This document shows, one piece after another, positions 6,500-60,596 of a DNA stretch of 64,000 nucleotides (its first letter is position 1; the number at the start of each line of letters is the position of its first letter). Under the pieces are notes generated by a model. That model was not told where the DNA came from and did no database searches. It saw only the letters and a program-made list of their open reading frames with translations. The position numbers and the translations under genes are program-made. This DNA comes from Psammoneis japonica (taxonomy: Eukaryota). The stretch lies in NCBI GenBank assembly GCA_008632985.1, contig QPGO01000175.1:1-64000 (forward strand), given 5' to 3'.

Positions 6500-9400
6500 G
6501 TTGTTATTGATGCTTGCTTGTTGTTTTCTGCTCCCTTTTTCTTCTTTCTGAGTTCTGCCATTCTCTCGGAAGACTGTTTTTTGTCGCACTCACGTTTCAA
6601 CATTTTCCGTTCACCTTCTGAGTCAGGTACATTCACTAGAGCACTCTTGCGTTTAACCAATGAGCAATGTTGCCATCCCCACCGTGAACAGTCCTTGGCA
6701 AGGTTGGGGCATCCAAAAGGAGCGGCGCTGCACCGTCGTCGATCTGCCCCGCGTCCGTCCCTGTCGGCGCTGACAATGCAGGCAGCTTGAGTGGGAGCAA
6801 CCAATGGTGCTGCTGGCAATGGGTTGGTTGAAATGTCATCAGCATTGTCAAATGCAGCCTCTGTGGCAGTCTGCTCCAACTCCACTTCCGCCAGCTCCAA
6901 GGGAGGCTTGCTGGAACGGTTGTGAAAAGCCGCGGCCGGATTCTTGCTCTGTTCTTCCCGACCTGGCCTTGCAAATTTTTCCAACAGGCCGCAGCAGTCC
7001 ACTCCCATGGTGTCCTCGAGCATCACCAACTCCTGTGTCACTTTCCACTTGTTGCAGCAGCTTCTGAGCATGGAAGGGAGCTTGGGAAAAATCGTGAGAC
7101 ATGGCCCGCTTTTAGTTTGAACAATCTTGCCAATTCAACCCAAGTTTTCCAGGTGGGTTTTGGATGATCCTCAAGAAAATCATTGTAAATCCGCTTTTCG
7201 TTTGGATGGCTAATGTGCAACGGGGGGCCTCTCAGTTTCATGCGTTCTTGCGAAAAAGCAAGAAGAGTCCCTTGTGTGAGATTTTGCATGTCAACATTGC
7301 ATCGAGTGCCAACACACGGCATGCAGGACTCACCAGCAAGAAACTTCAAGTCGCCTGTAAGCTTGGGATCTGGTGTGTCTTGGTGCTCAACAAACTTTTC
7401 ATCACAATTTAATGGCCCCACGCCAACCGCAACAAAATCATCTGCTGGTTTAAACAAGGACTGATTGGTGTGGTGGGGAAATGGATCGCAGCCAAACAAC
7501 TTGAGCATTCGAAGTTGTGTTGATCAATGACATCGTGACATGGCATGCCAAAGTCATGGCAACCACCGCATTGCATCCCAGCATTTGTGTTGTGTTGACA
7601 TGTGACAAGGAGAAGCAAGAAGTGCCCCACCTCTGCACCAACACCATGGGGTCCAAACGCCACCCGCATTTTCTGATGCAAATTCTCCGACCGATTTGAT
7701 CCCCGTCGACAGAGCCAAAGATTCAATCCATTCTTGTCCTTGCCATCCCACTGATGCATCACTGCATCTCAAGATTCCTCGAGTTGACCTTGCTCGTACA
7801 TTTCTTCCAAACGGTCAAAGTGTTGTTGGAGCTTGGTGCTCCAGCACTCTTTCAGCACAGGATTAGACTGGACCATGTTGTGGACAGCACGAATGTTGTC
7901 AGCTCCTTTGTTTGCTGGGGGGGGGGCACATCTGGACTCGCTGATGCCAAAATTCTTGGTTGAAGCAGAAGTGGTTGAGGACATCCTCCACAGAGGTGAT
8001 GCCACGATGGTCGGCAAGGAATCTTGTCATGTCGTCCCAACCCTCTGCATCAAACTCAATGGCAGCTTGAATCACCAACCGACGAACCAACTTTATCACG
8101 TTTTTTGTTTTGGGATTGGACAGGGATGGAATGTTGTCAAATGCGTGAAACCGATCCATCGATTGACGAGTTCTCGGGAGGTCGATCGCATCGTTCTCAT
8201 CATCAAAGTCCCCAGCATTGCAGAGCCACTCACCAGAATTTGTGTCATCCACCACAACAGCTTCCGAGTCACTGCTCTCCGGTGAATTGGCTGCCACAGT
8301 TGGTGCTCCCAAGTCACCACTCTCTGTCATGTTGGCTGCTGCAGTCGGTGCTCCCGAGTTGACACCCTCGGCCGATTCTTCCATTGATTCTTCTGTCACA
8401 TCTGCAGTCGGTGCTCCCGAGTCAACACCCTCTGCCAATTCTTCCATTGAATCTTCCGTCGCAGCATCGCGTCCAAAGCCGTTGTCCACCATGTCACTTG
8501 TGTTGTCGCTCCCAATTGCAGCTGGTTCCAACTGCACACGGATGCGATCGGTCGGCCATGCAACTGCCATGCCATCAAAGGTTTGGCATTTCTCAAATTC
8601 CTCGTACAAACTGCGCGCTCCTCTGCAGTGACATTGTGGCCAAATGCCGGACGGGCACTTCGCACAAGCACACGTTTGACTTTCACGATGCNTGCTGTTT
8701 CTTCCAATGGTCATTTGGCCCCACTTGCGAATCTCACCCCCTGTTCCACCCACAAAGACAAGCTCACCCGCAGCACAAACTTGATTGCAATGCATCAGGT
8801 GCACATTCTTGCCGTCCGACAACTCAGATGCTGGAATCTTTCCCGCACGCCTCGCATTTGCAATTTGGGCCTTCAAAACACTGCAAAGCCGCAAATGTAG
8901 ACAGGGATCCAACGCCGCATGCTCCTTTAAGTCCTTGCAGATTTTCATGATTCTCCAGTCTGCATTCTGGCTGAACTTGTCAACGTGTGCCTCAAGAAGT
9001 CGAGCGCAGAGCTTCTGCACACCGTGTCCCTCCAGATGATTGGGCTCCAGTTGTTTCGCTAACTCCATTGTTTCAATTGCTCGTGGCATGTTGATTCCAA
9101 GAGCGTGGCATCCACCAACATCAAATGAGACATTCACGGCAGTGGGAACAAGCTTTTTGTTTTCCAAAAGGTGCTTCAAAGCTGGCGGCACGTCAGATGC
9201 ATCAAAAAGACCCATTTCTGTCAAGCTGAGAATTGCAACTTTATCGTAGAGCTGGGGTGGAAAGCATGTCTGAAGCACCCGCATTGTCGATCGCATTTCA
9301 TCAAGATTGCACTCCGAGTCAATGCCACATGCAATCTCACCATCCAGAGAAGCGACTTTGGCTGCAAGACTGAGGGCCCAGTTCTGAGCCTCAGTGTGAG

Positions 9401-11143
9401 TCGAGAACTCAACATGTTTGTCTTTTGCAAGACAAGCTCAAGGGAGTCCATTGCAAGAATTCCTTTTCCACGGCTTCACTTTCTGTGGGAGCTCTTTGAA
9501 AACCTCTGGCCACAACCCACGGTCGCCACCACCATCACCTTCCACCCTTTTCAGTTCAGTGGCACCACTGTTGATTCTCACACTTTTGTGCTGATGAAAA
9601 AACGGCCTCAATTCATTGTCAGATTTGGCATGGGTCAAAAAGATTGAAGGTGACCACACCTCTGAGCGACACCGAGTCACACGTTGCAAGGAATGCTTTT
9701 CCGGATCGTTTCGATGCCGATGTCATTTTCGCGAACTTGAATGAATGATCACTGCTCTCCAACTCGTCTGGATGTGGTTGATGGCTGGCTTGAAAACATG
9801 GTTCTAGAGTGGCCATTGCCTGGTGACACACAAATGAAAGAGTTCAAATGAAAGAGTTGATGAGAATGACAGTGCAACGGCTGCGATTGACACCAGAGAC
9901 GAGAAACGCACCTGTGGATGAAGCGTCTTCAGGAGTCGTGGTTTCAGCAGCACACCATTGTGTTCACCCACAGAGTGAAAGGGAAAGAATGGCTGTGGGA
10001 CAAATGTGTCAGTTGCTGTGGCAGCGGACGAAAAAGCCGCACGACCGTCCACCTTGTCGGAAAGCACATCAAGATGCGAAAGGTCATCCTTCCAACACTG
10101 CGTGTGTTTTGGTTCATTGACGCTAGAGCAATGTGTGCCAAACAGTGTGCCCTTCACACACAAGTGAAGAAACTGGCACATCATTGACTCATGCATTCCG
10201 ATTCCACTGGCAGTGACAAGAAATGGAAATCGCTCCGAAACAACGTTTGGCAACTGCGACATGAACTTTGGATGGAACTCCGCAAACGTTCTGCCGCACC
10301 CCTGCTTGTTCCCATCCTCCCCTCTGCAACAAATTCTCCGATGAAGAACCCAAGCAGCAATCAAATGTAGATGCATTGGCCGACAACACCACCCATTGGA
10401 CTCAAGAGCACCACACTTGACGCAGTGGATGCATTTGTGCTCATTCAGAGCCAGTCTTGTGGATTTCCCATTGTGGCCAAATGAGTCAAAATGAAAAACC
10501 CATGCAGCCTCCTTTGCCCAATTAAAAGGATCAAGAGTTGGAAGTGACACAGCTGACAAATCAGGCGGATGCCACTGCTTGCCGTTCTTTCGTGCACTTG
10601 CATTGCTGGAGCTCATGACTGCACTCTTGACTCCTTCCAAGCAATTTGACAGCAGTGAGCCAGGCTGGGGTTTGCACTGAGATGACTCACGCTTCTTTTT
10701 TGTTGCTTCACTGATGTCATCTTCAGTGTCTTCATCGTAGTCTTCATCGTCGTCGCTAAAATGCGCCTCGTCATCGTCGTCGCCTTCCTCCTGTCCTCGC
10801 GCCAACCCAGCTCTGGCGATGTCTGCCGCTGCAGCGAGCCTCTCCAGCGCCTGAATTTGCTTTTCCTCATCACTCTTCTGTTTGTTAAGACGTTCTTGCT
10901 CCAGAGCCTCTTGTCTTTCCCTTGCTCTGGCTGCTTGCAGCTCCGCTGCTGCTGCTTTCTGCTGCTCGGCTTGTCGCTTGCGCCGAGCTTCTGCAACCGT
11001 CAACGCCGGCTCTGAGCATTCTGCTTTCGAGCCAATTCTTCACTTCGATCACACTTGGCTCCAAAAACAGTTCCTTGTCCTTTAATGTGGGAGACTGGCC
11101 TGCCAGATCCCTTTCTATTGCCGCCGCTACCGGTTCCGCCCAT
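6500..11143 (-). pseudogene. Frameshifted transposase-exonuclease fusion
   Basis: ORF pieces 9804-11003 (SQLPNVVSERFPFLVTASG, DUF6729-like), probable intron 9820-9911, then SDHSFKFAK, 7899-9296 (QKLCARLL..DKFSQNADW..LKEHAALD resembling the WRN/RNase D-type YAALD motif; DRFH) and 7409-7762 (LCRRGSNRSENLHQ); family assignment from motif memory. Confidence 0.65.
8341..8463. repeat. 63-bp in-frame tandem duplication inside the transposase
   Basis: GCAGTCGGTGCTCCCGAGT... at 8341 and 8404; protein repeats TEDSMEELAEGVDSGAPTA and TEESMEESAEGVNSGAPTA. Confidence 0.9.
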
Positions 11144-11343
11144 GGTGATGTTGTCTACGCACTGTAAACTGCGTGTGAGTCAACACTTAAACATCCGGGT
11201 TACTTTTGCGTGATGACTCTCGCTTCGCTCGAGTCGAGTTAATCAAAACGCTTTGCCCACACCAGGTGCAAAAATGCCCGAAAATCAACTCCACAACCCA
11301 CAACGCGAAAATCGCAAAAACAACGCTGCCCCCCCGCCTCACC

Positions 11344-13619: not shown

Positions 13620-15190
13620 AACGAACGGAAAAAGTAAAAACGCATGAGGAGACACTCAAATCAATCCTCAGGACTCCACCCAACATCAAGGCCAGAGCCA
13701 TGAAGCCTGGCACCAAAACTGGTGCGTTTCTGTCAGTGCACCCATGGAGGACACTGTGAACGGCATGGAGCTCTCACGCCAAGAGTTCTGCGATGCACTT
13801 GTGGTGGATGACGCGGGTGCAAATTCTCCATGACCATGCCCTCCAGTGCAAGATGGGCAATTTTGCAATGAACCTCTTGCCAACAGCCCTGTTGGTCACA
13901 TCTCCAGAATCCAAGCAACTCCATGACAGCGGCGGTCCGCCGAACAGCACAACAAACTCCAGTGTGTCCAAGGATGAAAGGGCAGACACGGCAACAGATG
14001 CTCAAGGTTCAAACATGGGCGCAAAGTCGTGCTCGTTGTGAATCATCTTTGCACAACACCAAAATGCATGAGCTCCCAGCAACACAATCACGCCAAACTT
14101 GTCGGGTCCAACCCAAGCAGCTCACTTTTTGTCGTTCTCATGGAGCTGTCGCTTTGTTGGAAAATTGAGCTTCTTGGAAAAGTTGGCATGCAGCAACAAC
14201 ATTGTGTGTGCTGCTCACCAACATGCCCACTTTGTGTCGAATCCCAAAGCTTCTGATGGCGCAGCTGTCAAACACGGACATTCTGCAGCACCCGCTTGCA
14301 GCAAGAAATGAAAAACACGTCATCAAACGAGATGACATGCAAGGCCTTGATTGCTGTGTGAACAATGATTTTTGTGACAACTGGTTCAACAAGGCCATTG
14401 CTTGAAATCATCCTGACATTGCATGCTCTCACTCTGGCTCTGCCATCAAATTTGCCAACCTGCCCCTCTTTGTTCTTGGGCTTCTTCCAAGCCATGTTTG
14501 CTGCCAGCAGTGCAGAATTTGAGTGCATGATGATTGCTCTCTCTGTGGCTGCCAGACATGCCAAGTCTGTCACACACCCACTGGATTAACAACAAGGAGA
14601 GAAACACGGATGTGAGGGCGGCTCCTGCCGTGCATTGCTGCGTGATGTTTTAAGACAACAACTCTGAACGCCACACTGGAGATGACACTCCTCACACCCA
14701 AGATGCATCTGGTGTGCAGCCATCACTTCAACATCACACTCCACCACTTTTGCAACAAGACCGCCAATGGCCATGTTCAAGCTCAACCTGTTCCCTGCTT
14801 GCCCCTCCGGTCAACAAGAAGCCAATGTCTTCGCAAAACAGCAGCCGCCAGCAGCACCTGCTGGCTGAGGAGGTTTTCTGCAAGCTCCATCATTTGCTTT
14901 TTGGCTGGTGATCCATCTCATTGAGTGAGCAACAAGTGTGACCATTGATGTCTGCATGGGCCTCATGACATCCGCAACAACCGTTTGTCAGCGCTGCCTC
15001 GACTTCCATCGCCCCAAGTTGTTTGCACTGCCCCTGCACCCTGCACGCCGCACACGGCTGGCCCACAAGCCATTGTTGTTTAAAAGCATCTAAAACATTT
15101 GTCAGGGAAACACTTGTTGAGGCATCTCTCTTCTCACCTTTTTGAGATTCAGAACAATCACAATTGGTTCATCTGTGTTCTTCACAAGGC
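13620..15190. mobile_element. Decayed TpA-depleted TE mosaic
   Basis: TpA nearly absent; Cys/His-rich, Tyr-free ORF fragments; contains a LINE-like piece. Confidence 0.6.
13715..13860 (+). pseudogene. Fragment of a CRE-like non-LTR retrotransposon C-terminal region
   Basis: Across frameshifts it reads TGAFLSV.P..NGMELSRQEFCDAL...DHALQCKMG, resembling the W-LS..P..NG..LS..EFRDAL / HAL.CK.GG pattern ahead of RLE-type endonucleases. Confidence 0.5.
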
Positions 15191-20859: not shown

Positions 20860-22260
20860 GACAATTTTACAAAAGGTTCGCCATGCCATGTCCCCCACAT
20901 GAAAATTAAAATTTCCAAATTAAGTGGGCGTACCACAGTTCTCGGCCCGTTCATTTTCTACGTGGCCTGGTACAACCCAAATCTGTGTAGATTCAGTACA
21001 TTTCGCCCTGTAGAACAGTTTTTGGGTGTGTTTTCTGGCTCGCGACGCAAAATAACACGCAAAATAACACGGACAATGGCGTTTCGCCGATTTCAAAAAT
21101 ACGGTTGTTTCTGAGGTACTTTGTAGTGTACTCTCAACGGAATATCACACGTCATAGCATAAGGTATGTGGTGAGCTCGAGAGTACACAGGTTCACATGG
21201 GTAGATCATGGTGAAATTTTGAGCTGAAGATTGGTGTTGACACCGCCGATTTTGTTGCATCAACACACAACTCATGCATCACCATTCATGCTGTGCATTT
21301 CGTTGAGTACTTGTACGCTCATATTCTTTCAACTTACACATATGTTGTCTTTCCTCATTGTTGTTTTGTTCTGTAGGGTCTCCCTTGCCATGGGCCATCC
21401 CTGAGAGAGAAATGCTTGCTTTGAATGTCACTTCTACCTTGCAACGGCCACGGCAGTCTGACGACAAGTCCAAGTCACAGATGCAGCATCCGGATGACTT
21501 CATAATAAATGTAGAAGCTTGGGTCTGTGGTGTCTGAAGATGTTCAAGCTCTTGGCAGCTCAGATTTGTCGTCGAGCAATTTTGACGCACATTTGACGTG
21601 CCTCCAGAAGGTGATGCGCAGTTTCATTCGACAGAGAAACGAGCCATGGCGATTGTGATGGCTTGCATTGAGTCTTACAGATACAAGGTAGTTTACAATG
21701 TGGAAATGTGTGACTCATTTGCCTCATCTGCTGAGCCTGTGCAACACATTTAGATGTCAAAGTCGGGGCAAATTGTGCACAATGCCAAGTCTCCAAAAAC
21801 AGCACAAGAGTGCAAGCCCAAAAGAAGAGTCAGCTTTGTAACTCATCATGGGAGTGTAGAGCTTATTTTTCTGGGGCATCATGTCTCTGTTGTTTTCATG
21901 GAGTGGACATTCCTGGTGTTGTTGCCGCCAACGTGCGAGCTTGCCTTGACAACATGTTGCACTGCACTCTGAGAGTTTGGAATGAAAAAACAACTTGCAT
22001 TTGCATCATTCTGTCATGGCAGAAATGCATGGGCTGTCCCTGGCCCTTTTGGAGAAATGGGGCAAGTGAAAGAGGAGCTACAGAAAGATGCGGACGATGC
22101 CATTTTGATGGATTGTCATCAGGTGGTGTGTCGAGAGGAGTCGTGATGGAGTGCCGCTTTGTGTTTTTGTGCTGCGTCCATGTGGGAATGTACGTGCTTG
22201 GCTCTCGTGTAGTTTCTACGTAAAAAGTGCACCAGGCGATCTCTGGACCGCCCTCTCAAT
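20860..22260. mobile_element. Unclassified decayed repeat-like segment with partial TpA loss
   Basis: TpA thins from about 21400 rightwards; TTCTACGT motif at 20956 and 22213 also occurs in the adjacent foldback; no recognisable protein. Confidence 0.35.
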
Positions 22261-22268
22261 GTTCTCTG

Positions 22269-22777
22269 ATGAGCCATGTGCAGGGGTTGTGAGTCCCGAA
22301 AAACAGGGTTTGGGCCGATTTCTGGTGCAAAACTCACGTAGAAAATTCGCGCAGAACATCTTGTTCGTCGTGCTTTTCCCGTGCTTTGCGAAAAATGGGC
22401 CACGACCTCAAGGAATCGATTTCAGTCACAATGGTTGGCACTTTGCGTACTTTCTTTTTGATGACAAACACAACGATGTCCACCGTTCGGCAAAATTCCA
22501 TCATTGGAAAATGTTTGCCGTGGTGGGACCGCAGTGAATTGTTGATCGAATTTCTGAAAATGGAGTTTTGAAGTGTTCACGCACAGAATCGTGTCACTCA
22601 TGTAAAAGTCATCATGCAAAGTGTCAATGGTTTCAGGGGAAAACGATTCCTTGAGGCGTCGGTGGAGCAGAGAAGCACGGCAGAAGCACGAGAAAAAAAT
22701 CGGCCCAAACCCTAATTTTTGTAATTTTTTCTACGCAGAATTTCTGCATGATTTTTGCACCAGTGCACATGGCTCAT
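22269..22777. repeat. Foldback or MITE-like imperfect inverted repeat (arms about 22269-22450 and 22613-22777)
   Basis: ATGAGCCATGTGCA/TGCACATGGCTCAT, AGGGTTTGGGCCGATTT/AAATCGGCCCAAACCCT, CCTCAAGGAATCG/CGATTCCTTGAGG and other mirrored blocks. Confidence 0.85.
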
Positions 22778-23299
22778 TGCATCCGATCGCCTTGATGAGG
22801 TTGGACAGTCGCAAGACCAGAGGTGCACAAATCATCTGTTGTCGTTCGCACACGCGCATTCGCACACTCAGCGCGCACGAACGACAAAACAATGAGGTGG
22901 ATCACGCTGGTGCTTCCGCCTGTCACGACGTGCTGCACCTCTAAGAATTTTTGTGGAGCGGAAAGCGGTTTCATGCCAAAATCTCACACAACAGCACGAC
23001 ACATCGAGAGGACTGCAGACAGCTCTGTGTCCACAGAAGAGCAGTGACACCTCAACCCAATGCTTCGCACCCAATCTGTTGCATCTGCTTCATTTGTGAT
23101 GGTGAGCAAAGATCAGCAGCACTCTGGGCAATGGAGAAAATTCACTGTTTGCACTCACACCTTCATCTTTTTTTTTTTGTGTTTGCCGTCATGCATTTCA
23201 GCGACAGCATCTCTCAGGATGAATGTTCCCCGGCAATTGTGCCTTCCCGGTGTCAAACATGTCCCAAGTGACAACACGTCAAAGGGGTCCTGCATTCTC

Positions 23300-23690
23300 A
23301 TGACTGTCAGTTGCTTGAGTGCGAATTGACTTGGTCGCATCCATCATTTCGGCAAAGCAAAATGGTGCGCATGTTTTGTCAGCGAGCTTGTCTTCTCTGC
23401 TTTCTGCGGTTTGTGGTTTGGAGCCACGTGTCAATGAAATGCTCTCATGGACTCCATTGTCCATTTCTTGCATCATTGCCACAGGACACAACTGCCAGTT
23501 GATTGAGTGCGAATTGGCTTGGTCGCATCCATCGCATTTCGGCATGACAAAATGGTGCGTTTTTCTCATGAGCAAGCTCGTCTTCTGTGCTGTTTGTGAT
23601 TTGTTGCTTGGATGGCATGGCTGCACATCAAGGAAATGTTCTCACAGACTCTGCTGTCTGCCACTTGTGCAATTGCCAAAGGAAACATCA
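23300..23690. repeat. About 188-bp tandem duplication in the 3' region of the P element
   Basis: TTGAGTGCGAATTG(A/G)CTTGGTCGCATCCATC at 23315 and 23503. Confidence 0.85.
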
Positions 23691-23864
23691 AGGCACCCAT
23701 TTGAAGTGGAGTGGGCTGTCTCGTGCATTTGTGGTCATGAGCAGGCGTCCACAGCATTGTGCTGTTCTTGCGGATGAGCTGTGGCATGGTTTGGACAGCC
23801 GTTTGTTGCTTCTTAATGTGTGACAATGAATGGCAAGGTGAGATTGAACTGTGCATTGTTGTCA

Positions 23865-26800
23865 TCATTTGTTCTTCTTTGCTGACATCGTCTTTTTTGT
23901 TTCCCCTTTTTGCCATGACTTTTGGTCCCTCCCGCAATGCAGTGTCCACGCTTTCGATGCACATCTGCTTGTGTGTTCCTCCCGAAACGAGTCAACCACT
24001 CGTGATGCTCGAGCTGCAAATGTTTTTTGGACAATGCAAACGAACAGTTGCTGCATGGCTTCATCATCACTTGCAGCATCACACACTGCATCAGGAATCA
24101 ACTCTGCGAAGTCGTTCCACAGCAATTCCATGGCCTCGTCTGCAAGTTTGTTGCATGCTGCAGTTGCGCTGTCCTCCCCCAGCTTCTTCATTGTGGCTTC
24201 ATTGAAGCAACCGCGAATTGCAGCAAGCAATGCAACCCGAATGCAAAAAACTTGGGGGACACCAACGTGCAATCCTCTTTTCCGGCGCGGCCGCGAGACT
24301 TGTCTTTGAGCTTGAGCATCTTGGGATGCACCATTTGTTGAATGGATGGCGCCACATTTCTCAACTCCATTTTGTCTGTCACCATCTCATCAAGCATTGC
24401 TGCTGCTTTCTTTCCACTCTCAGAGTCTGCTTCAAAATGATTGCGTGCGTTTGCTGTTGCCCAGCCTGGGAACCACATCACCTCCTTGTTTGCATCCTCC
24501 TGAGAAATGGCATTTGCAGATGAGGCAATTGCTCCCCATTTCTTGTTGTCTTTTGCTGTGGCTTTCTCGACTGCTTCATCAACGCTTCTGGGTTCTTGGA
24601 AGATTCCATCCTCCATGGCATCGTCCAGAGTTTGCACAAATTCTTCTGCAAACCAAGAGGCTGCGAAGTCGACAATCAGGGCGTGGAATGCCAACAGCTT
24701 TTTGGGCTTGCCATCTTCGGCCGTTTCTGCCTGCAGAGTGTTTGGGAGCCTGGAATGGCAAGTGTCCATCCTTTCCATGTCTGTTTGTAATTTGTGCACT
24801 TGAACCATGAAGGACCGCTCAACTCCGCGCCTTCCAAACTTCTTGCATCCTTTTCCATCTCTCCCCAAAGGCACTGACAGGCTTCATGGAAGGCTTTTTG
24901 TTCAGCTTTGTTCAGTCGACACAGCGCTTGAAAGTGATGTTCTTCTTCAGTGCCAACTGCCAACTTGGCATGCTCTGTGAAGTCAACATCGCTCAACATC
25001 ATGTCATCGCACCATGTCCTGCTTTCCGTGTTCATTCTGTCCAGCACCAACTTTGTGCCTTCACTGCCTTTTGATTTGTTTGTTTCGATTTGTTGTCCAG
25101 TGGACAAATCCAGGGTGTGAGTCGAGTTCCTGGCATTCCGATCCTGCAGCCATTGGTTCACCGTGGTGGCGTGTCTTTGTTTGTCTGTGCGATTGGTGAG
25201 GTCATCGCCCGTTGACTCGGCTCTGGTGACGTCTTCGCTGTCGCACATGGGATTTCCATCCAAGGCTGCAAATGCCTTTTGTGAGTCCACAATTCCTGTT
25301 GTGCTTGGGTGACTCAGTGGCGTGTCACCTTTGTGTTGCCGGACAAGGGAAAACAGTGCTTCCAGAATGCTGGTGTTGGAGTGCAAGAATGGGATGAAAA
25401 CCTTGTCTCCCGCCACCTTCCACACAGTTTCCGCATGAACCATGAAACCGCAAACACTCACACGCAGTGCGTGACAAGTTTGACTTGACAGAAACCACCT
25501 TTGCCACTCTTTAGACTTGGAGTCTTTCAACTTTAGCTCCTCTTTGCCCTTCAGTTGCTCTGCGCGCCAATCACGAAGGCACTCAAGTGTCACTGCCACC
25601 TTGTCCTGAATGTTCTTGGGGGTGATTCGTGCAAACCTGTTCATGGACATTTCTGTGTAGATGTTTGTCATGTGTGTGAGAAACTCAAGAGTCATCACGT
25701 CTGACGTTGCTGTCTCAAATTGAGGCAGCTGAGAGCTGGCCACAGTGGATGCATCAATCTTCACAAACTGGTCCTTCAAATCGGTCACAGTCTGCACCAT
25801 GGTCTTGTCTGCACTGCTGGCAAACTGAGCTTCTGGGTGGAAAATTTGAAGCTCCTCAGACAGGTGGTTTGTGAGCTCATTGATTGTGTCAGAGTGAAGG
25901 ACTTGCTTGACCAAGTTCACATTCATTTTGTTCCACCTGTCAGGCTGCTCTGACTCGCGAGTGAGGGGAGTGTCTTGGATGCTTTTCTTTTGTTCTCTTT
26001 TGTGAATCTGATTGATCGTTGGCCAGCCAAAGTGAGTGCCATGTCGCTTGAAACTTCTTGGCAAAGATGAGTTGTTGGGCACCTCGCTTGAGCTCAAGAG
26101 AGCATTCCTTGATCCTTTTGCATTGTGGACCGCGCAAAAGAAGATGCCCACTCTTCAAGTTGGGTCAGCAGGGTTGACAAATGAGCACATGCTGTCATCA
26201 AGCCAAGTGTCTGTGTCCTTGGGAACCTTGCCAAGACAGAACATTTTGACACACCTGGGGTTGCTTCCCCCTGCATCAAGCCCAAAGCCAGCCACAACAA
26301 GCCCAGCAAGCTCACACCCAAGGATGGTCTGCTTGGTCTGGCGCATGAGCTCATCTCCCATCATTGCGCCGTTGCTGAAGAAGAACTCAAGTGGGTGGGT
26401 TTTGTTTGTCTCAGAGCACCTGAAAAAAAAACTGGTTGACGCAGAGAGAGATGCTGAAGCTGGCCTCTTTTGTGCTCTCCTCCTTGCCGCTGTCCTTGGC
26501 ACTCTCTTGCTCAACCAGGTTGTCTTCTGGCTCAACGTTGGCAACCTCCTTGTCAGTTTTCTTCACCAACGCCAGAACCTCATCAGCCAGCTGGATCCTG
26601 TCTTGGTCATGAGCAACAACAACGCCAGTGCAGACAGAGGTCATTGGGTTGAAGCAGAAGTCAGATCTCAGCTTGAGTTGATCACAAAGAATTTGGCCAA
26701 CCACCTTCTTGCAACAGCCACCTGTGAAGGCATCTGCAGCCCATCTGCAGATGCTTGGGAACGTCCCCTCCTTGGGTGCCATGGCTTTCTTGACTCGCTT

Positions 26801-28300: not shown

Positions 28301-28662
28301 GTTTTGGAGACAGTCTGATGTCAATGCGAGTGACAATGTTGTTGGGTGTGACAGAATGTGGATGCCGAGTGTGTTGTGCCGAAACGTTGCGTTGGAGGGA
28401 AATCGTGGAAATTTCGATTTCGCTCCATAAAATTTCTTACGGGTACAGCACGTCGTGACAGATCTTGCGTTGATCATCTACGCGCGTGATCCACCTCATC
28501 GTTTTGTCGACTGCGCGTTTGCGCGCATCGGGCGACAACAGACGATTTATGCACCGCTGCGTAAGATAGACCTCTCTAGGGCCTAGAGCAGGCTCTCCGG
28601 AGCCTGGGGGTTAGGGCCTCGGTGAGCGCCGGTTACCGCGTACATCAGTACCAAAACCTACG

Positions 28663-37200: not shown

Positions 37201-37300
37201 CTGAGCCTGTGGGCAAGCGGCGTGCTGGATGGACGAGTCAGTCGTCGAAGTGCCTGAATCAGAATCATTCGACTAATCAGGTGGCTCACGACTGAAAAAA
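34210..37300. other. Heavily decayed tract lacking TpA and most CpG (old TE or duplicated gene relic)
   Basis: TG/CA-rich sequence; 60-bp tandem duplication at 34826-34930; no recognisable domain. Confidence 0.6.
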
Positions 37301-44161: not shown

Positions 44162-45763
44162 ATGAAAGGGTGGTCGTATTTCCTTTCACTTTTCATGTTG
44201 TTGAGCCATGGCTTCGCATATTCTCCCCTGCATCATTCAAGACAAATGAGACCAGAAAAGCAAATGGGGTCAGAGCGAAGAGTTGCCAGTGCACTGTCGT
44301 ATGACGCAGTGACAGATCTACCAGTGGACAAAGAAGAATCTAAGGTCGGAGTTTTGCTCTTGAACCTTGGGGGACCGGAAACCGGAGATGATGTCGAAGG
44401 TGCGTGGTTCTGGTTCCATGTTGAACTTATTTTTAATTGAAGTCAATGGAAATACCTTATTCAAATGCATTGCTGAATAGAACAACTCATGGTTAGGATT
44501 CGCCCGACTGACTCATTGCGCTTTTTTTGAATTGCGTTTTGAACAGGCTTCCTGTACAACCTGTTTGCCGACCCTGACATTATTCGACTGCCGGGACCAC
44601 TAGCACCATTACAGTCACTAATTGCATGGATAATATCGAAACGGCGAGCACCCAAATCGAGGGCTGCCTACGAATCAATCGGCGGGGGGTCTCCAATCCT
44701 GAAGTATTCCAATGCGCAGGCGAAGCTCATGAGTCACTCTTTGAAGGAACGATATGGCCTAGATGTTAAGGCGTATATTGGGATGAGGTACTGGCACCCG
44801 TTTACTGAGGATGCTTTAGAACAGATTCAAAAGGATGGTATAAATGCTCTGGTCATTCTCCCGCTATATCCTCAGTTCAGCATATCCACGTCTGGGAGCA
44901 GTCTGCGAGTTTTGCAGGAGATCTTCGCCAAGAACACAGATCGGTTTGGAGCTAATAAAATGGTTCACACGGTGGTCCCCTCGTGGTACGATAGGCCGGG
45001 TTATGTCAAGGCAATGGCAGACCTTATTCAGAAAGAGCTTGAGTCCTTCACACCTGAAGAAATTGCGGAGGGCACGGCAGCGGGGCAGAAATGTGCCCGC
45101 CATGTACTGTTTTCTGCACATGGGGTGCCAAAATCTTACATCGACGCGGGGGATCCATATCAAGAACAGATAAAGGATTGCGTTAGAAAAATATCCGAGT
45201 TGCTTCCCGGGCCCGAGGCCGGCGTCGAAATCCATCTGAGCTACCAAAGTCGGGTGGGTCCCATCGAATGGCTTCGTCCGTACACTGACGATGTGCTTCC
45301 GGAGCTTGGGGCTAGTGGTGTTAGAAACTTAGTTGTTGTGCCAATTAGCTTTGTCAGCGAACACATCGAAACGCTTGAAGAAATCGACATTGAATATAGA
45401 GAGTTGGCTGAAGAAAGCGGCATTACGAACTGGAGAAGGTCTCCCGCCTTGAATACTGATGGTACCTTTATTGATGACATGGCTGACATGGTTGTGGATG
45501 CTCTTACTGAACCTGCTCAGACGGTCACGGAGGCATGCGTGGCCAACAATTGCGGGGATGTGGACTTACTACCAATCGACGAGCGAGTAGGAATAAACAG
45601 CGCAGGAGTGGGCGGTGTTGGCGCAGAGGCTGACCTGATTGCTACCGAGAGGTTGAAAGATAAGGAAAGGATAAACGGGAGAGTGGCGATGTTTGGTGTG
45701 GCGGCTACGCTCTTAGTGGAGCTTCTGAGTGGAAAACCTCTGACGCACATGCTGGGTTTCTAA
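44162..45763 (+). CDS. hemH: Ferrochelatase with C-terminal CAB motif; exons 44162-44399 and 44547-45763
   Basis: GVLLLNLGGPET, FLYNLFADPDIIRLP, LFSAHGVP, YQSRVGPIEWLRPYT, SFVSEHIETLEEID, ERINGRVAMFG. Confidence 0.96.
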
Positions 45764-52636: not shown

Positions 52637-54932
52637 CAATAAGCCAGTGGAACTTGAGTGTTGTTTTCGAAGAAAAATGTGAGCGCAGTCATAACCTCCC
52701 ACCTCGGTTGCCAGCATGCAGGTAAGTCCCGCGCGACCCTTGCGTGACTCAAAACTGCTTGAGCAATGTTGTGGCGTGACATCGTGAGGGTGAAAGCCAC
52801 AGCAAGCTGTCGCATTTGCTGCCCAGCCATTCCCAACTACAGTGAAGCTCCACCTCCAGTTCCTTCATCCCATTGATCCTGCTGACAAGCCTGACACCCG
52901 TGTCTCTCCTTCCGACATCTGCTCTCCTCCATCACTCCTCCTGCTGTTGATGCAGTGTCCTGCTCTCTCAAGAGAGACGCTTCCTTCCAGCTTTTGGACG
53001 ACCTTTTCTGGAGCCAAGTGCTGTGCCAAGCCTTGCTAAAAGCAGTGATTGTCATGCTGTGATGTCACCTTCTTGCTGGAACCCTTCTCTCTGATGCCTT
53101 CAACTTTTGCCTCTTTGGTGGTTCTCAAGCCACCTTTGCCTTTTGATGAAAAAAAAGGCACCCCTGCAAGCTCCCCCAGACCTCTCCAAAACTGTTTTCC
53201 AACTTCCACTCACCTGACTTCCTTTTCCCAACTCTCCTGCATCCCAGCACACTTGTGAGTTCCTCCTTGATGAGATCCACAACCCCGCCAAGAGGCTTGC
53301 CTTGTCCCTCCCACTCTTCTGGCCCAAGCTTTGCCCTTTTGTCCAAGTTCCACCTTCCTTGATCATGTTGGTCTCCTCACCTCCCCCAGATTCCTTTCTT
53401 GGCTCATCTGTGTTCACTGCCCATCTGCCCAACAAGCTTTGAAAGCCAATGCCAAGTTGCTTGTCTTGCATGCCATGAGCTTGTCTTTGACCCAAGCTGT
53501 TTCAAATGAACAACAAAGATCATCTTGGCTGCTGCCTTTGCCCAAGTGACATTTGCCGCATCAGCCATCAATCAGCCACCTGCACAGGAAAGTGACAAAC
53601 CTGTGCTGAATCTCTCCAGTTTGTCTGGAAAATGTCATGGCTTTTGTTCAGAGCTCACATTCTCTTGTTCAGAATCGTGTGTTTTTAACAAGTCCTCAAT
53701 GATTGTCAACAAAGGGAGTTTGATTGCTGTTTCAACCTTCCAAGTGGGATTCAATGGTTGATGCAAATCAGTCGCATGACACACACACTCTTGTCAATTT
53801 TTCACATCTGCTTGTTTTGACATTGTTTTTGCATCTGTCCATTGTCAGGTTAAACTGACCTTCCAAGGAGGAAATCACAGTTGACAAACTTGCCACTTGC
53901 ATTTGTTTCCATCTTGACAACCGTTTGTTCACAACAATTTTCTGACATTGTTCATTTCTGACAACGATGATGTTCAATTGTCTTGTTAACCTGATTGCAC
54001 ATCGGCTGTGTGCTGCTTGTCATCTGATTTGCCAAAATGTTCCATTTTGTCATTTCTGCACTGCACACCAAACAACAAACAATGCCCCCTTTTTTTCCAC
54101 TCTTGCTTTCTCCTGCATTCCACCAGCTCCTGTTGTCCTTCTCAGTTCCCACATGATGGGTGTGATGTTTTGGTTCTCATGTCCTCCCTTGCAACCACTC
54201 TTGCTCTTTTTGCCAATGTTTGCACCAGGGAACGACACTGTCCTGCAATCATCTGTCTTGTGTTCCTTCTGTTTGGCAGGCCAAAGTGTTGCCTGCAAAA
54301 AGAGAAAACTCAGCAGCACCAATGATCAGGTTTTGTGCATGTCTTGTGTTTCTTTTGATCTTGTCTCACACACTGCTTCTGATTGCCTTTGTGCTCTTCC
54401 CCATTGCCTGTCTTCCATTGCAGCTCAGGTCATGCACCCAGATGCTTGTGTGCAAAGATGTGCGCAAGTGCCAGTCATTTGCATTGTGCACCCGATCTCC
54501 ATCCATTCACCACTTGTTTTCTCACCTTGTGTCTTGCATTTTATTCCATCCCATCCACAATGCCGCTGCCTGTCCCCACTGCTCTCATTGTCAGATGTCA
54601 GATGTGACTTGAGTTTGCATTTTTTGTGTCTTGTGAGGGAGTGACAGTTCATGCTTTTTGCCAAAATGCAAGCCTGACCATCAGTTGACACCTGCCAGCA
54701 TCTCTTTTTCAGCAACAATTTTGTTTTAAAAATCAATGATTTCATTGCACACAATGGTTCAAATGATTTGAAACCACCTCAATGAATCATTCAGTCATTG
54801 ATGTCACACATGGATTCAACAAGTGTGATTTTGTCACACAAATGTGTTCTTAAGATTGAAATTTTCACACTCATGCTGCACACTCCCAGCTCCAGAACCT
54901 CAATCAACACCTTTTTGCCATTTGGTGTGTTC

Positions 54933-56295
54933 AAAAATTGCCACTGCCAGCAAGACAATCATCTCTCTTGAGAAAGCTCAGAAACAGGCCCTTCATGCTG
55001 GTGAAACAACAACTTTGGAAACCCACCTTGTAAAGAAAGTGGGCAACTTGAAGGTGGGTTGGTCTTGCTCTTCTGTTGTTCTTTCTTGGTTTTCCATCCA
55101 AACAAGAGACAGGGAATGCCATGATTTCCATTCAGTGACTCCCTGCCCTGGTTGTTGTTGTTGGCGCCTCTGGGACACAATGGAGGCACCCAAAAGGCCA
55201 TCCAAAGACAACTGGGCACTTGCACTCTCACACCTGTCACACGGCACACAAAGCTCCATTGTCTCATCTGTGCGACAGCTTGCACTGGGCCAAACCCAGC
55301 CATGATGTCAGAGAGACAAGGTGCTGCATTGACACAAGACAAGGCTTTTTCTTTGCTTCCCAACAACCGTTGTTGTTGTTCAATCAACACCTTTTTGCCA
55401 TTCAGCCCTTTTTTGCCATTTGGTGTGTGTTCATTGACCATGCCGCCAAGAAAAATGAAGAAGCAGAACCCACAAGGTGCTGGCCACAACAATGCCAGTT
55501 GCGCCAATGCCATTGGCAGCCATGGTGGAGGTGGTGGCCATGGCGGAGGTGGTGTGCTTGCAGTGCTCAAGTGCAAGGTTGAGGTCCTCCCAGGCAAGGC
55601 TCCAGGACAAGACCTTGGTGACCTCAAGGCTCTTTGTCCAGAGCTGCTCCAGGAGCAGCCGGTGACCCAGGATCTGCCGCCACCGCTGCAGCCTCCAACA
55701 ATGAAAAAGCTGATGCCTTTGACAATGTGTCAGACAGCTGCTCCCCTGCAGTTCAACAAGAAGATCTTGACTTTCTCAAGGAGCACAAGAATGAAGTCCC
55801 TTCCTGCAAGACTCCCTTGCTGCTTGGAGCCTCCAAGCACCAGCCACCTGCAGAATCAACCCAAAAGAAATGTCTGGCAATGAGTGCAGAGTGTGGCTGT
55901 TGTTTTGCTGGCAGATGCACAGCCTTTGCAAAATTCAAAACAAAAAGATGTGCAAGCAGCTGCAGCAAAAGTGTAAAGCCTGCAATGCAAAAATTGCCAC
56001 TGCCAAAAACAAAACTGCTTCTCTCCAGAAAGCTCAGAAACAGACCCTTTGTGCCAGTGAAATGACAACTTTGGAGACCAACCTTGCAAAGAAAGTGGGC
56101 AACTTGAAGGTGGGTCATGCTCTTCTGTTCTCTCTTGGCTTTCCACCCAAGCAAGAGACAGGGAACACAATGAATTTCCATCAACTGACCCCCTGCCCTG
56201 GTTGTTGTTGGCTCCTCTGGGACACAATTGGGGCACCCAAGGCCATCCAAAGACAACTGGGCACTTGCGCTGCTGTCACACCTGTCACACGGCAC
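54933..56295. repeat. About 300-bp direct duplication (54933-55250 and 55990-56295)
   Basis: AAAATTGCCACTGCCA...AGAAAGTGGGCAACTTGAAGGTGGGT...CCATCCAAAGACAACTGGGCACTTGC in both copies. Confidence 0.9.
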
Positions 56296-56945
56296 AGAAA
56301 GCTCCCTTGTCTCTGCAGGTGAGGTGGCTGGGCCAAAGCAAGCCAATCACATCAGACAGGAAAGTGGCTGTGTTGGCCCAAGATCAGGCTTTTTCTTCCA
56401 GCTGTTGTTGTTCTTGCCTCCTCAGGGTTCCAATGAAATCTCTTGTGCCCACTCCAAGACAAGTGAGTGCTTGTGCTGTCACACAGATGGCTGGTTCTTG
56501 GCTGGGCCAAACCCCCAGTCATGTCAGACAGACAAGGTGCCTGCATTGACACAAGACAAGGCCTTTGCTTCCCAACCATTGTTGTTGTTGCATCTTCTGG
56601 GACCCAGCAGAGTCATCAAATGCCATCCCAAGACAATGAGCACTTGCATCATCACACAGATGGTTTTCTTGTCTCTTGGGTTGGCTGGCTGGGCCAAAGC
56701 CAGTCATGTCAGAGAGACAAGGTGCTGCATTGACACAAGCCAAGGCATTTGCTCCCCAACGATGGCTGTTGACATGTCCCTGGCAACCCACTGGAGTCCT
56801 CCAATGCCATCCCAAGACAACCCGCACCTTCTTTGCCACATCTGTGGGCTTCGTGCTTGCACACCTCCTTGTGCAGAGCTGGGCATCTTCTTGTTTGTGG
56901 AGGAATTGCACAACGGGGCTGCTGCTGCCCAAGACAAGGCTTGCA
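56240..56945. repeat. Degenerate tandem array with period about 175-205 bp
   Basis: GGGCCAAA..ATGTCAGA(C/G)AGACAAGGTGC..CATTGACACAAG at about 55288, 56504 and 56691, weaker at 56330; CCATCC(A/C)AAGACAA-type block at about 56243, 56450, 56623 and 56807. Confidence 0.8.
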
Positions 56946-59900
56946 GGCAGGTTCCCAAATCAGAGTGCAAAGCCCACACAATTTGGCCAACCCACTCAAA
57001 AAATGCAGACTGAGTGCATTTGGGTTGTGTGTCATGCAGGGAGCAACTCAAACAAATGTTCATTTGTGGCGATGATGATGATCTGGCTTGGCATTTGTCA
57101 AATGTTTGCTGGGACATGGGGACACCACCACATGCTCCATTTTAGCCACTCAAGTGGCACTGGCCTGTGCAGCATGCACCATCCACCCGGCAAGCCTGTT
57201 AGTTCAGAAGATGAGTTGCACAGTGCCCAGCAGGAAAAAAGGACAGGTGCAGCAGAGACAGAGCAAAGCAAAGGCAGAGAGTTGACAAGGTGGAAGGAAA
57301 AGGAAACAAACAAAGCTGTCCTTGAGAGGTTGCAAACTGAGGACAAAATGAGCCACACACAAGCAACTAAAACAAAGGCAGAGATCTGACAGATGGAGGG
57401 GGCAAAAATAAAGCTGTTCTCAACAAGAGCTTAAAATGAGGACAAAATGAGCCACACAGTTGACCCATTTGATGGAACCCCCCGCAAGTCCACACGACCA
57501 TCCAACAGAGCATTTTTTGTGAGTGAAACACAACCCTTCTCATGTTGTCACCACAACAATTTCTGTTTCAGTCTGTTGCATGCCAACCTTGTTGTGGCTG
57601 TCCTGCTGGCAATTGTTTTCAACAAGCTGTTTGTTCCACTCCTCTTGGCGAGGTTTGGTCACAGTGATCACCAGCAGAAAGTGCTTTTGTGACAATGACA
57701 ACAACTGTGTGTTGCAACATGGGACTCTGGACTTGTTGTGAAGTCCCAGAAAAGCCACCATGCTGCAGTGCCTTGTGCACAAGGTGAGGATCCATCCACA
57801 CACCTTGCAAGCCAGCCAGAAATGCAGCAACAAGAAGCGTTGTGGCCTCCTCAATCTTCATGGTTGGTTTGATGCTTTTGTGATGGGAAACACATCACTC
57901 AAGTGCCTTTCAGAAACATGTTGCCAAGCTCACTTCTTCCCTTTGCCACAACAGATTGAACTGGCAAACTGCACACACAGAGAAAACACTTGTGTGAGCC
58001 ATGCAGGCAACTTGAGCAAAGGCAGAGATCTGACAAATGGAAGGATGAAAACAAATGAAACTGTCCCCAACAAGTGTTTAAAATGTGGACAGAATGAGCC
58101 ACACAGGTGGCTTGAAATGAGCAAAAAAGATTTGTTTGTTTGTCACTTCATGACTGCCAAGAAACAAAACCAACAATTGAGTGTGTTGAAGATCTGTGGA
58201 TGCAATCAGTGTGCATGTGACAAATTTTGCTCATTGACAAGTTGTGCTCTTGTCAAGCACAGAAACATGTCACAGACGTTGGATGTTGAGTCAGCAGTCT
58301 GTGATTGTTTGGATTTTTTTGTTGCACCTCTTTCAATGCGTGGTGTCATCATTCACAGTTGTGGCTTTGCACTGAAAATTGTGCAGGATCCACCTCTGCA
58401 CAGGAGAGATCACACAGAAATGTTTGCTGGGCAGGTGAAAAACATGCAACAATCCTGGGGAATGGGGTTTTCTTGCAAAGCTCTGCCTCAAGATGTTCAA
58501 ATGGCGCTGCAGGAGGTTGACTGCCACCCAATTGCTTGACTTCTGTCACATGGCTTGAACAGCTCAAGCTGGTGCAGTTTTCCCCACTTGGCTTGCGTGG
58601 GCACCACTCTTTGATCCATCACCACCAGAGGCATCATTGTTCATTGTGCTCACACTGCTCCTCTCCAATCTCTTGAGAGATGACATCTCTTCTGACACAT
58701 GGATTGCAGCCTGGTGCTTGTGCCTGTCTGCCTCTGTTCTGACATGCCCATGCTGTCGACACTGCCTGCTGCTGCCTGCAAGACATCTGTTGTCGTTGCC
58801 TTCAGCATCTCTCTGTCATCTCATTGGAGTGAGATGAAGACACCAGTGCTCCAGGGCTGTGTTCCATGTCTGCTGTGTGACAAACATGTGGCCAGCAGTG
58901 CAGTCTCAACTTCCACCTCCTGCATCTGTGCACATGTCCACCATGATGAGAGTTGCCACTGGCCTGTCTGCTTGGAGATTTCCCCATGTCAAAACTGCTG
59001 CCAGTGACTTCCTCTCTCTGACCCACAGAGTTTACATTGTGATCATCAGCCAAGGCAGATTCAAGAGCAGGAGGGTCTGCTGTGGGATCTCTCATTGTGG
59101 CTGAACAAGAGCCCAGGTGCCCAACATGTTGTGGAGCAATCACAACAAGCAGCACAAGAAAGCAGCTCAGATCTGACATCGAGCCTGCCACCTTGTTGTC
59201 AGAGTGCTCTGGCCCTGGCCCCACAGGCAAGATCACTTCTGGATGTCTCTTGTCATCAAGCAAACCTGCTGCAGACCAGGATGGCCCCACACAAAGCAGT
59301 GCAGCAGCTGTGTTGGACAGCTGTGCCATCACAGCAACAGGCAGAGAAGCCTGGACACCTTGAGGTGAGCTTTCTGAGGTTAGATTGCCAACACATGACC
59401 CTTGCAGACTGCCCAAGCACCAAGCTGAGCAGGTGCACATTGATTGTTCTCCCATGGTCAGTTGTTTTGCAAACCATTGTTGATGTCTTTTTTAGTGCAC
59501 CACTGCTTGTCAGCACAACTTGTTGCGATTCAGTCATGAACTGATCAAGTTTTTGACTTGACTGCTTTCTCTCCAGTCTTTCATTTCATCAGTCATCAAC
59601 TTTGATTGCCATCAGTCAATTTTTTGGTTGGTGATTGCTTTTCATTGCATCCTTTGAGCACGAGTCCAATGGACAACCACTGTGATTTCCTCAACACATT
59701 TCCACTCAGATTTCAAATGTGTGAATGAATGCCAGCACCAGCGGGTGTTTGCAGATGGTGCTGGGACCTCCCACTGACATCATCCCTTTGCAGAGACATG
59801 CACTGTCATCTTTTGTTGAACCTGTGGCTGATCTCACTGTCCACCCTGAAGTCAATGCTGGCACCACTCACTTCCTCGGTTGGTCAACCTGCCAGATCTC

Positions 59901-60596
59901 CCGATTTTGCCCCTGAGTTTCTCATCACCACAAAGCTGCCTCCTTCACCCAAGAGATCTCCTTTGCCTTGCAATCCAGCTCACTGACAACAAACCCAAAG
60001 CAGCACTCTCTTCTGCAAATGCACAGTTCTTTTCATCATGCACCTCCTTTCCACTGGCTGATGTCCATTTCAACCTGCTGTTCCTTGGTGAACCCCTGAC
60101 CTTTTCCATTGGGCACCTCACCTTTCACAGATGAAGTTGTCAGTCCCTCTCTTTGCCTCAGTTCCTGTCTCATGCTGCAACTTCTCTGCCTGTTCCAACT
60201 GTGACCCAACTCATTGCTCTCATCTCCCTGTGCCTCCCTTGGCAGGTCTAGCCACAGTGTGGTGCATTGCAGAGTTGAGTGTTGAAACACTGCAGTTGCC
60301 CAGGTTATCTCCCAATGTTGTGTCACGGAAAACAGCAGTTTGAGCACTAACTTAAAACACCTTCTAGCTGTGCAATAAACTAAAAAGAACTGAATCCTAG
60401 CTAGGAAATGATCGGGCTCACTATAAACAGAGAATAGAAAAAGACTGCACCTTCCCCATTGAGTGTTTGAGGCGAAAAACAATGGCGACAGTTCACGGCA
60501 CCAATCGAAATGCCTGCGCCGAAATCAACCGGCACCAGCCATTAGTTGGGTGATGCACAACTGCATTATTGTGATCTATCATCATTATTTGTTACT

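Follow-up and report, generated by a model that had tools for sequence, protein, structure and literature searches.

TA-poor tracts among the host genes of a diatom contig

The DNA examined here is a stretch of 64,000 nucleotides (nt), positions 1 to 64,000 of contig QPGO01000175.1 from the Psammoneis japonica assembly GCA_008632985.1, and is referred to below as the window. It carries host genes including ferrochelatase, TCP-1 and IRE1, as well as five tracts of DNA in which the dinucleotide TA is almost absent. The original prediction, made from the letters alone, had read these tracts as the product of a repeat-targeted hypermutation that turns TpA into TpG or CpA. The five tracts are real, and their limits were refined from the position of every TA in the window. 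They are given here together with a repeat block that adjoins tract 3, rho being the observed/expected ratio of a dinucleotide.

Tract 1, 6655-11083: mobile-element relic; 22 TA, TA rho 0.08, CpG rho 0.65
Tract 2, 13636-15081: relic of unrecognised kind; 2 TA, TA rho 0.02, CpG rho 0.45
Repeat block, 21513-22942: partly converted, high-copy; 19 TA, TA rho 0.20, CpG rho 0.82
Tract 3, 22943-28428: body of a P-superfamily element; 14 TA, TA rho 0.04, CpG rho 0.49
Tract 4, 34210-37274: relic at single-copy depth; 4 TA, TA rho 0.02, CpG rho 0.24
Tract 5, 52839-60249: oldest-looking relic, with internal duplications; 18 TA, TA rho 0.04, CpG rho 0.115

Measured in intervals of 500 nt, the TA ratio ranged from 0.4 to 1.1 in host DNA versus 0 to 0.17 within the five tracts, inside which TG and CA climbed to 1.4–2.2. 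Taken together, the tracts span 21,836 nt and have 60 TA (rho 0.04), where ~919 would be expected at the host rate, whereas the remaining host DNA of the window has 1583 over 37,595 nt (rho 0.63), which is the ordinary TA content that had been claimed for the neighbouring host genes. The longest run without TA extends over 1542 nt (25658-27200), compared with a median TA spacing of 15 nt across the window, and the interval 7921-8580 contains exactly one TA, at 8094, as first described. At every tract edge the TA density changes over within ~100–200 nt; tract 4 ends at 37274, and the RNA-like contig of IRE1 starts by 37425, ~150 nt away. With such sharp edges and an ordinary host TA content, the depletion is confined to what we read as inserted or mobile DNA, and host genes are spared.

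AT, AA and TT remain common in the tracts, as had been stated (rho 0.83, 1.27 and 1.19), and none of them is depleted (host AA 1.09, TT 1.15), while TG and CA are both enriched ~1.7-fold (rho 1.72 and 1.75). This composition bears on one of the candidates named originally, a Pol-eta-like error-prone repair synthesis in heterochromatin that would cause A to G changes at WA (W being A or T). Pol eta does produce A:T to G:C changes with a WA hotspot, but WA includes AA, which the tracts have kept along with TT, and the loss is confined to TA, which has fallen to near zero. The signature thus does not fit, and we regard this explanation as highly improbable. Fungal repeat-induced point mutation (RIP) was rejected because it leaves the opposite composition to the TA, CA and TG ratios found here, and the TpA loss also goes beyond CpG decay, both as previously argued. 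That account was sound for TA and overlooked a parallel depletion of CpG, which has a rho of 0.36 over the tracts versus 0.97 in host DNA.

Deficits and excesses were computed by scaling host dinucleotide frequencies to the tract lengths. The deficits of TA (859) and CG (739) sum to 1598 and the excess of TG plus CA is 1587, so that the two losses together account for the whole excess, ~46% of which is attributable to CpG loss. Deficit and excess were 229 and 225 in tract 1, 98 and 120 in tract 2, 362 and 365 in tract 3, 250 and 276 in tract 4, and 659 and 602 in tract 5. Because one conversion raises G+C and the other lowers it, the G+C content of the tracts stays at ~0.5. TG and CA are equally frequent in each tract (binomial p 0.14–0.77), neither strand bias nor runs of TG versus CA were found in the tracts (z −1.8 to +2.3), and at saturation nothing points to processive or strand-biased action. 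The strand symmetry proposed for the TA to TG/CA footprint is therefore borne out by the balance of TG and CA in every tract, and also by opposite-strand hits between copies that are described below.

Relics, and the direction and timing of the change

The identifiable tracts had been taken for transposons. Tracts 1 and 3 do hold mobile-element genes, whereas tracts 2, 4 and 5 hold no recognisable gene: a Pfam scan of 104 open reading frames (ORFs) from the tracts gave only a chance-level match to Anti-TRAP (E 0.004). The features of tracts 1 and 3 that enter the comparisons below are all on the minus strand.

7899-9437, minus strand: ORF P0002, 512 amino acids (aa) stop-to-stop, with a DEDDy-type 3'-5' exonuclease domain (PF01612, E 1.6e-10)
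9807-11039, minus strand: ORF P0156, 411 aa with 1 Tyr, of an unnamed gene family
22818-28559, minus strand: P-element-superfamily DNA transposon with terminal inverted repeats (TIRs) of ~145 nt at 22818-22963 and 28418-28559
24865-27568, minus strand: degenerate transposase coding region in two frames (tblastn), with a break near 26420-26430
25435-25437, minus strand: diagnostic codon, CAT (His) here and TGT (Cys) in three contigs from other copies

Two intact homologs of the tract 3 transposase, P0003 and P0008, match PF21787 (TNP-like RNase H, P-element/THAP9 transposases), and this homology together with the TIRs places the element in the P-element (THAP9/TNP) superfamily; the transposase copy of tract 3 itself reached no Pfam threshold. 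A search of 1.84 billion representatives with its 688-aa ORF (26411-28477) gave 95 relatives at E <= 1e-3. A search of P0001 against the PDB returned nothing meaningful. In tract 1, the exonuclease motif of P0002 was located at 8907-8921, close to the predicted position near 8920, where HAALD (EHAALD with the preceding residue) aligns with EYAASD of the solved NanoRNase C; the motif Tyr is now His. A word-based homolog search for relatives of P0002 gave no matches. P0156 has five homologs of 42–56% identity on up to 9 contigs, without a Pfam domain. From these matches we identify tract 1 as the probable relic of a multi-copy gene family with a 3'-5' exonuclease. A lone N at 8692, inside the exonuclease ORF, is the only ambiguous base of the window.

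Both relics have nearly lost tyrosine. The counts given originally all hold, with 2 Tyr in the ORF originally given as 7899-9296 (0.4% of P0002), 3 in the 688-aa ORF (likewise 0.4%), in which LHAESPKGC was also found, and 16 in the ORF of a Crypton-like element described in the next section. Intact homologs are not equally Tyr-poor; in both families they have 2–4% Tyr, and the window copies at most 0.4%. For the transposase, 78 of 98 relatives were used, those with at least 2% Tyr, and 230 columns had a majority residue. None of the nine conserved Tyr columns is kept, four now reading Cys (TGY, Y being a pyrimidine), two His (CAY) and three Phe (TTC), while F is kept in 16/21 columns, N in 12/14, G in 13/15, D in 8/9 and C in 6/6. 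P0156 likewise keeps none of its 11 conserved Tyr columns (5 His as CAY, 3 Cys as TGY, 1 Ser, 1 Leu and 1 Phe), with S kept in 11/11 and G in 16/17, and Arg is replaced by Gln in 3/19 conserved Arg columns. When these two unrelated elements are pooled, conserved Tyr is kept in 0/20 columns and 14 of the 20 read His or Cys, in agreement with the proposal that Tyr was lost through TAY to CAY or TGY. P0156 also has 92 columns in which its two closest homologs agree and the window differs. A single reversion of TG or CA to TA explains 14 of them, compared with 3.7 on average and 11 at most over 2000 shuffles, and reversion to CG explains six further columns, all of them Arg to Gln or Arg to Cys.

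Comparisons between copies bear on the timing. At the column of the diagnostic codon, homologs have Y in five cases and F in three. The ancestral TAT was struck independently, on one strand in this copy and on the other strand elsewhere. A second codon, at 24934-24936, likewise forms a CAC/TGC pair between copies. CAT here against TGT elsewhere at a Tyr column places the change at the DNA level, after insertion and on both strands. The two TIRs of the transposon also differ, the left one having CA or TG at 3/3 sites where the right retains TA, and CA at two or three sites where the right retains CG. Tract 5 contains several internal direct duplications with 73–85% identity (54932-56820 and 57265-58109). 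Adjacent TG<->CA doubles make up 6/52 and 8/52 mismatch events in its duplicate pairs, where fewer than one would be expected by chance on a rough estimate. The codon pairs, the tract 5 duplicates and the TIR mismatches therefore show that the hits followed the divergence of the copies, and the tract 5 duplications are older than at least part of the hypermutation. In the high-copy block, other copies have TA where the window copy has CA or TG (21554, 21625).

Over all copy-to-copy differences in the short-read-like run X1, 1093 transitions and 438 transversions were counted. Among the differences listed between 23866 and 26133, 21 letters form 17 events, 13 of which fall in the TA/CG/TG/CA set, the other four being two other transitions and two transversions. 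That A to G and T to C changes fall on TpA is seen here as a footprint, and not as de novo events.

Two alternatives are countered by this evidence. The elements could have been TA-poor from the start, owing to a TA-poor donor or to selection, or the composition could be an assembly or base-calling artefact, for which nothing speaks besides the composition itself. The state is common to unrelated elements, a catalytic motif has been disrupted, conserved Tyr has given way to His or Cys while intact homologs have normal Tyr, and copies differ by TG<->CA doubles. A metagenome scan for relatives' DNA gave one locus of 1129 nt (L001), in which TA is normal (rho 0.56). In tract 4, an X1 contig matches 2760 nt (34268-37027) letter for letter, which speaks against an artefact, although this contig may stem from the same data as the assembly. 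We therefore give this alternative almost no credence. ADAR-like A-to-I editing of RNA, followed by reverse transcription and reinsertion, would draw on the preference of ADAR for a 5' U, which would yield UA to UG. However, the best-defined element is a TIR-bounded DNA transposon, which contradicts this route for tract 3, both strands are equally hit, non-coding parts and one TIR are converted, and to our knowledge ADAR is confined to animals, all of which makes the RNA route extremely improbable.

CpG loss, flanking bases and targeting

The loss of TA is ahead of that of CpG in every block. When the blocks are ordered by CpG rho / TA rho, from 0.82/0.20 (21513-22942) through 0.65/0.08 (tract 1), 0.49/0.04 (tract 3), 0.45/0.02 (tract 2) and 0.24/0.02 (tract 4) to 0.115/0.04 (tract 5), TA loss is almost complete before CpG drops by half, and arithmetic on the first three blocks puts the TA log-loss at ~4–7 times the CpG log-loss. 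DNA methylation in diatoms is mainly at CpG according to the text of PMC5124317, and for this reason we read the CpG loss as decay of 5-methylcytosine in silenced DNA. It is best read as a separate, slower decay of methylated CpG, with methylation deduced from composition, and it shows the pattern of such decay, namely a CpG rho of 0.115–0.65 in the tracts compared with 0.97 in the host, and Arg to Gln or Cys at conserved Arg.

A single process of dual specificity, such as one deaminase with both the A of TpA and the C of CpG as targets, would also join the two losses. They do share segments, with the right TIR spared by both and the left TIR hit by both, and ADAT2 enzymes are reported to be active on A and C in DNA, as cited in the text of a preprint on the alga Bigelowiella natans (bioRxiv 10.64898/2026.01.13.699255). 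On the other hand, the losses are uncoupled, ~90% or more of TA having disappeared at CpG rho values anywhere between 0.82 and 0.115. The neighbour that each change requires also differs in position, being a T on the 5' side of A but a G on the 3' side of C. The main text of the same preprint reports no C to T excess in the hypermutable regions of B. natans, where 230/231 mutations are A to G or T to C, and methylated-CpG decay is, from the diatom source cited above, a sufficient and ordinary explanation. We consider dual specificity decidedly unlikely and retain two separate processes.

The TA that remain are not a random sample. They stand in a TTA or TAA context in 50/60 cases in the tracts versus 539/1583 in the host (Fisher p 2e-14), and their flanks also differ from those of tract CA/TG, taken as a back-mutation null (p 3e-8). 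With both strands pooled and survival given relative to a host-scaled expectation, the values were 0.315 for TTAA, 0.135 for CTAA/TTAG, 0.055 for GTAA/TTAC, 0.042 for ATAA/TTAT, 0.033 for CTAG, 0.018 for CTAC/GTAG, 0.016 for GTAC, and 0 for ATAT, ATAC/GTAT and ATAG/CTAT. Survival is thus highest for TTAA and for TA preceded by T or followed by A. An additive model, with the A of each strand converted at a rate that a single neighbouring base determines, gives a rough arithmetical fit. The site being palindromic, the responsible base may be either the one before the T or the one after the A. Product tetramers in which A follows the new G are fewer than expected, a hint towards the base after the A, in a comparison confounded by CpG products and a proxy baseline.

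The prediction that the process is aimed at repeats was not upheld. Copy number was estimated from the summed word depth of contigs in a single sample, the only one found to contain the window, a measure that does not capture past copy number. The estimates are listed here, and with them the Crypton-like element, which has stayed unconverted and acts as a control within the window.

Host genes and tract 4: summed word depth 59–66, ~1 copy
Tract 3: summed word depth 260–630, ~5–10 copies
21001-23001: summed word depth ~4500–4900, ~75 copies
29005-31005, in the Crypton-like element: summed word depth 900–1900, ~15–30 copies
28970-31119, minus strand: Crypton-like tyrosine-recombinase element; 85 TA, TA rho 0.65, CpG rho 0.91, 16 Tyr in 394 aa

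The Crypton-like element has normal TA and CpG at 15–30 times single-copy depth, yet tract 4 is fully converted at single-copy depth, so that present copy number, on this measure, does not predict conversion. From this we infer that DNA is singled out by its silenced or methylated chromatin state and not by copy number, and an untouched multi-copy element beside converted single-copy DNA gives a concrete handle on targeting by silencing state. The class of the control element is weakly supported, by a weak NDC10_II match and a protein atlas that leads to Phage_integrase/ALOG/NDC10_II clusters. RNA-like contigs over it have plus-strand GT..AG joints at 29203-29291, 29800-29873 and 30142-30233, with its long ORFs on the minus strand, and its transcription may be antisense or more complex than the ORFs imply. 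Run X2, which is RNA-like in having GT..AG joints, gives little or no cover on tracts 3 and 4 and covers their neighbours and the Crypton-like element, from which we draw no conclusion about expression.

The high-copy block has a TA rho of 0.20 with a near-normal CpG rho of 0.82 and may therefore be a young target. The interval 21001-23001, at ~75 times single-copy depth, includes a pair of 35-nt inverted repeats (22322-22356 and 22729-22763) that give it the look of a miniature inverted-repeat transposable element. A collection of viral contigs, scanned with both element families, contained no relatives.

Further observations concern the host genes. IRE1 (a 1552-aa frame) has 55 relatives, of which the two named are both from diatoms (Attheya sp., 48%; Seminavis robusta, 43%) and the best unnamed one reaches 52%; the diatom assignment drawn from the sequence is based on these two named relatives. 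Its RNA-like contig skips 90 nt at 38180-38269, which looks like an in-frame, stop-free intron, and long uninterrupted ORFs in this DNA can thus hide short introns. The ferrochelatase ORF (44543-45763) ends with a weak match to the chlorophyll a/b-binding motif (PF00504, E 0.0012), a feature also of plastid-type ferrochelatases, and the gene content marks the host as a photosynthetic eukaryote.

A probable TpA-directed process and its relation to known systems

We consider it very likely that the tracts are relics of mobile DNA that underwent, after insertion, a TpA-directed A:T to G:C process of the kind known from B. natans, together with a separate decay of CpG. In such a scheme, mobile DNA would insert into the nuclear genome, the five tracts being its relics, and a DNA-level process acting after insertion would convert nearly every TpA to TpG or CpA through an A:T to G:C transition that strikes the A of a 5'-TA step in one strand or the other. 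The conversion would run to saturation and halt ~100–200 bp from neighbouring host genes, and a second, slower process, deamination of methylated CpG (CG to TG/CA), would remove CpG in the same DNA. The enzyme would be a polynucleotide adenine deaminase of the TadA/ADAT2 type. The natural tRNA substrate of TadA/ADAT2 is U33-A34, and such an enzyme fits as a candidate because this U-A rule matches TpA; by that analogy a TadA/ADAT2-like adenine deaminase would be the leading candidate, although we hold its involvement to be possible rather than probable.

The same footprint could arise from thymine chemistry, if the T of TpA were oxidised or modified (5-hydroxymethyluracil, 5hmU, or 5-formyluracil of the TET/JBP type, or a hypermodified base) and then mispaired with G, since T to C reads as TA to CA and, from the other strand, as TA to TG. 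A symmetric footprint cannot separate A to G from T to C, 5-formyluracil does mispair with G, and dinoflagellate 5hmU occurs preferentially in TpA. The match of the TpA context to U33-A34 of TadA/ADAT2 stands against thymine chemistry and is not decisive. In the text of their preprint the B. natans authors offer adenine deamination as a hypothesis. Thymine chemistry is in our judgement unlikely, and we return to the adenine-directed reading.

Several points weigh against that reading. Its deaminase step would rest on analogy, and no deaminase was found in the window ORFs that were scanned. The footprint could be ancient and the process extinct, as it is known here from the footprint alone, without de novo mutations. 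For tracts 2, 4 and 5 a mobile-element origin is assumed from composition and setting, and host tetramer frequencies serve as a proxy for the ancestral composition of the elements in the balance and context calculations. Phe, which now occupies three of the nine Tyr columns in the transposase and one of the 11 in P0156, is not a product of TA to TG/CA. Site-level evidence from copies comes from the best-supported 40 of 1538 differing places, a small and non-random set. Lastly, 5 TA survive among the 142 nt of the right TIR (28418-28559); element and converted zone thus do not share exactly the same limits, and the hypermutated domain stops ~130 nt inside the element on that side. This TIR is host-like in TA and CpG-rich, and the left TIR is converted.

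The original prediction left room for the process being undescribed, but hypermutation of TpA to TpG/CpA in integrated DNA has been shown in B. natans (Mettrop et al., bioRxiv 10.64898/2026.01.13.699255), which was the only report of such a process in a full-text literature search. According to the text of that preprint, two integrated viral regions received 231 of 302 de novo mutations in mutation accumulation lines, 230 of the 231 being A to G or T to C and all on TpA per the authors, at a regional rate of ~6e-7 per site per generation, ~1000-fold over background. It also describes 324 TpA-poor coding sequences enriched in DDE (transposase) and reverse transcriptase domains and 124 clusters of TpA-poor, CpA+TpG-rich windows, and proposes ADAT2 as a candidate enzyme. 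The likeness to the present tracts, as far as the preprint text goes, covers change of TA to TG/CA only, strand symmetry, confinement to inserted foreign DNA, TpA-poor genes with transposase or reverse transcriptase domains, and clustering of TpA-poor, CpA+TpG-rich windows.

The differences begin with the hosts, B. natans being a chlorarachniophyte (Rhizaria) and the host here a diatom (Stramenopila). The targets given in the preprint text are integrated viruses, against DNA transposons and unidentifiable relics here. The tracts here are saturated (rho 0.02–0.08), whereas the preprint text gives a rho of 0.45 for the region of a nucleocytoplasmic large DNA virus, and the rate was measured there while the process here is known from its footprint. 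CpG co-depletion and a flank effect occur here, and the terms 'CpG', 'context' and 'TTAA' are missing from the main text of the preprint. In addition, the text of PMC13746701 gives B. natans an average of 8 introns per gene and describes it as rich in (AC)n arrays, whereas IRE1 here has one 90-nt intron over an RNA-like contig of 3.6 kb, and the 64-kb window has no such array. On these grounds, and with diatoms as the named relatives of IRE1, B. natans itself is an unlikely source of the window. As far as the literature shows, what is new here is the diatom-like host, the DNA-transposon targets, the saturation, the co-occurrence with CpG decay and the flank effect.

Relatives from other public assemblies hint, as leads at the protein level, at the same conversion in other organisms. 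Some are Tyr-poor and rich in Cys and His (P0024, 0 Tyr in 326 aa; P0092, 3 Tyr in 495 aa), and P0160 has His at 3/7 covered Tyr columns. P0038/P0100 and P0069 are further Tyr-poor, Cys/His-rich public relatives of the element families. We put forward tentatively, as a proposal whose chances fall a little short of even, that TpA-directed chromosomal editing is a widespread and perhaps ancestral defence of the SAR group (Stramenopiles, Alveolates and Rhizaria), diatoms included, which would act on silenced mobile DNA independently of copy number and in coupling with CpG methylation, through a flank-dependent adenine deaminase for which TTAA is the poorest site.

The present tracts would take TpA hypermutation from one preprint and one alga to a second, ecologically dominant lineage, which raises the question of its age and spread. 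Diatoms are genetically tractable, and if the proposal is true the enzyme could be found by knockout; once found, it would be a natural editor that changes A:T to G:C in double-stranded chromosomal DNA in a sequence-specific way. Two predictions, the flank effect and the link with CpG decay, can be checked against the B. natans mutations. The tracts represent an end state in which TA, Tyr codons and TAA/TAG stops are lost and elements are erased beyond recognition. Only TGA stops are left in them, and about half of the 68 window ORFs of at least 150 aa lie inside, on both strands and mutually overlapping; with TAA and TAG gone, predictors are likely to call orphan genes in such DNA, which is an annotation hazard.

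Among the better-known systems, fungal RIP resembles this one in being a DNA-level, dinucleotide-specific transition hypermutation that ruins mobile elements and leaves sharply bounded, skewed tracts. It differs in that RIP changes C to T mostly at CpA and creates TpA, while here TpA is destroyed and CpA/TpG are created, and in that RIP depends on duplication, while here, judged by depth, the multi-copy Crypton-like element has escaped and tract 4 has been converted as single-copy DNA. Methylated-CpG decay accounts for the CpG part of the deficit and the corresponding share of the TG/CA excess, but cannot remove TpA. The animal deaminases APOBEC, directed at retroelement DNA, and ADAR, directed at double-stranded RNA, share the principle of editing against selfish nucleic acids, and ADAR and TadA/ADAT act on A following U. 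However, APOBEC changes C to T and ADAR acts on RNA, whereas the change here is A:T to G:C in the chromosomal DNA of a DNA transposon.

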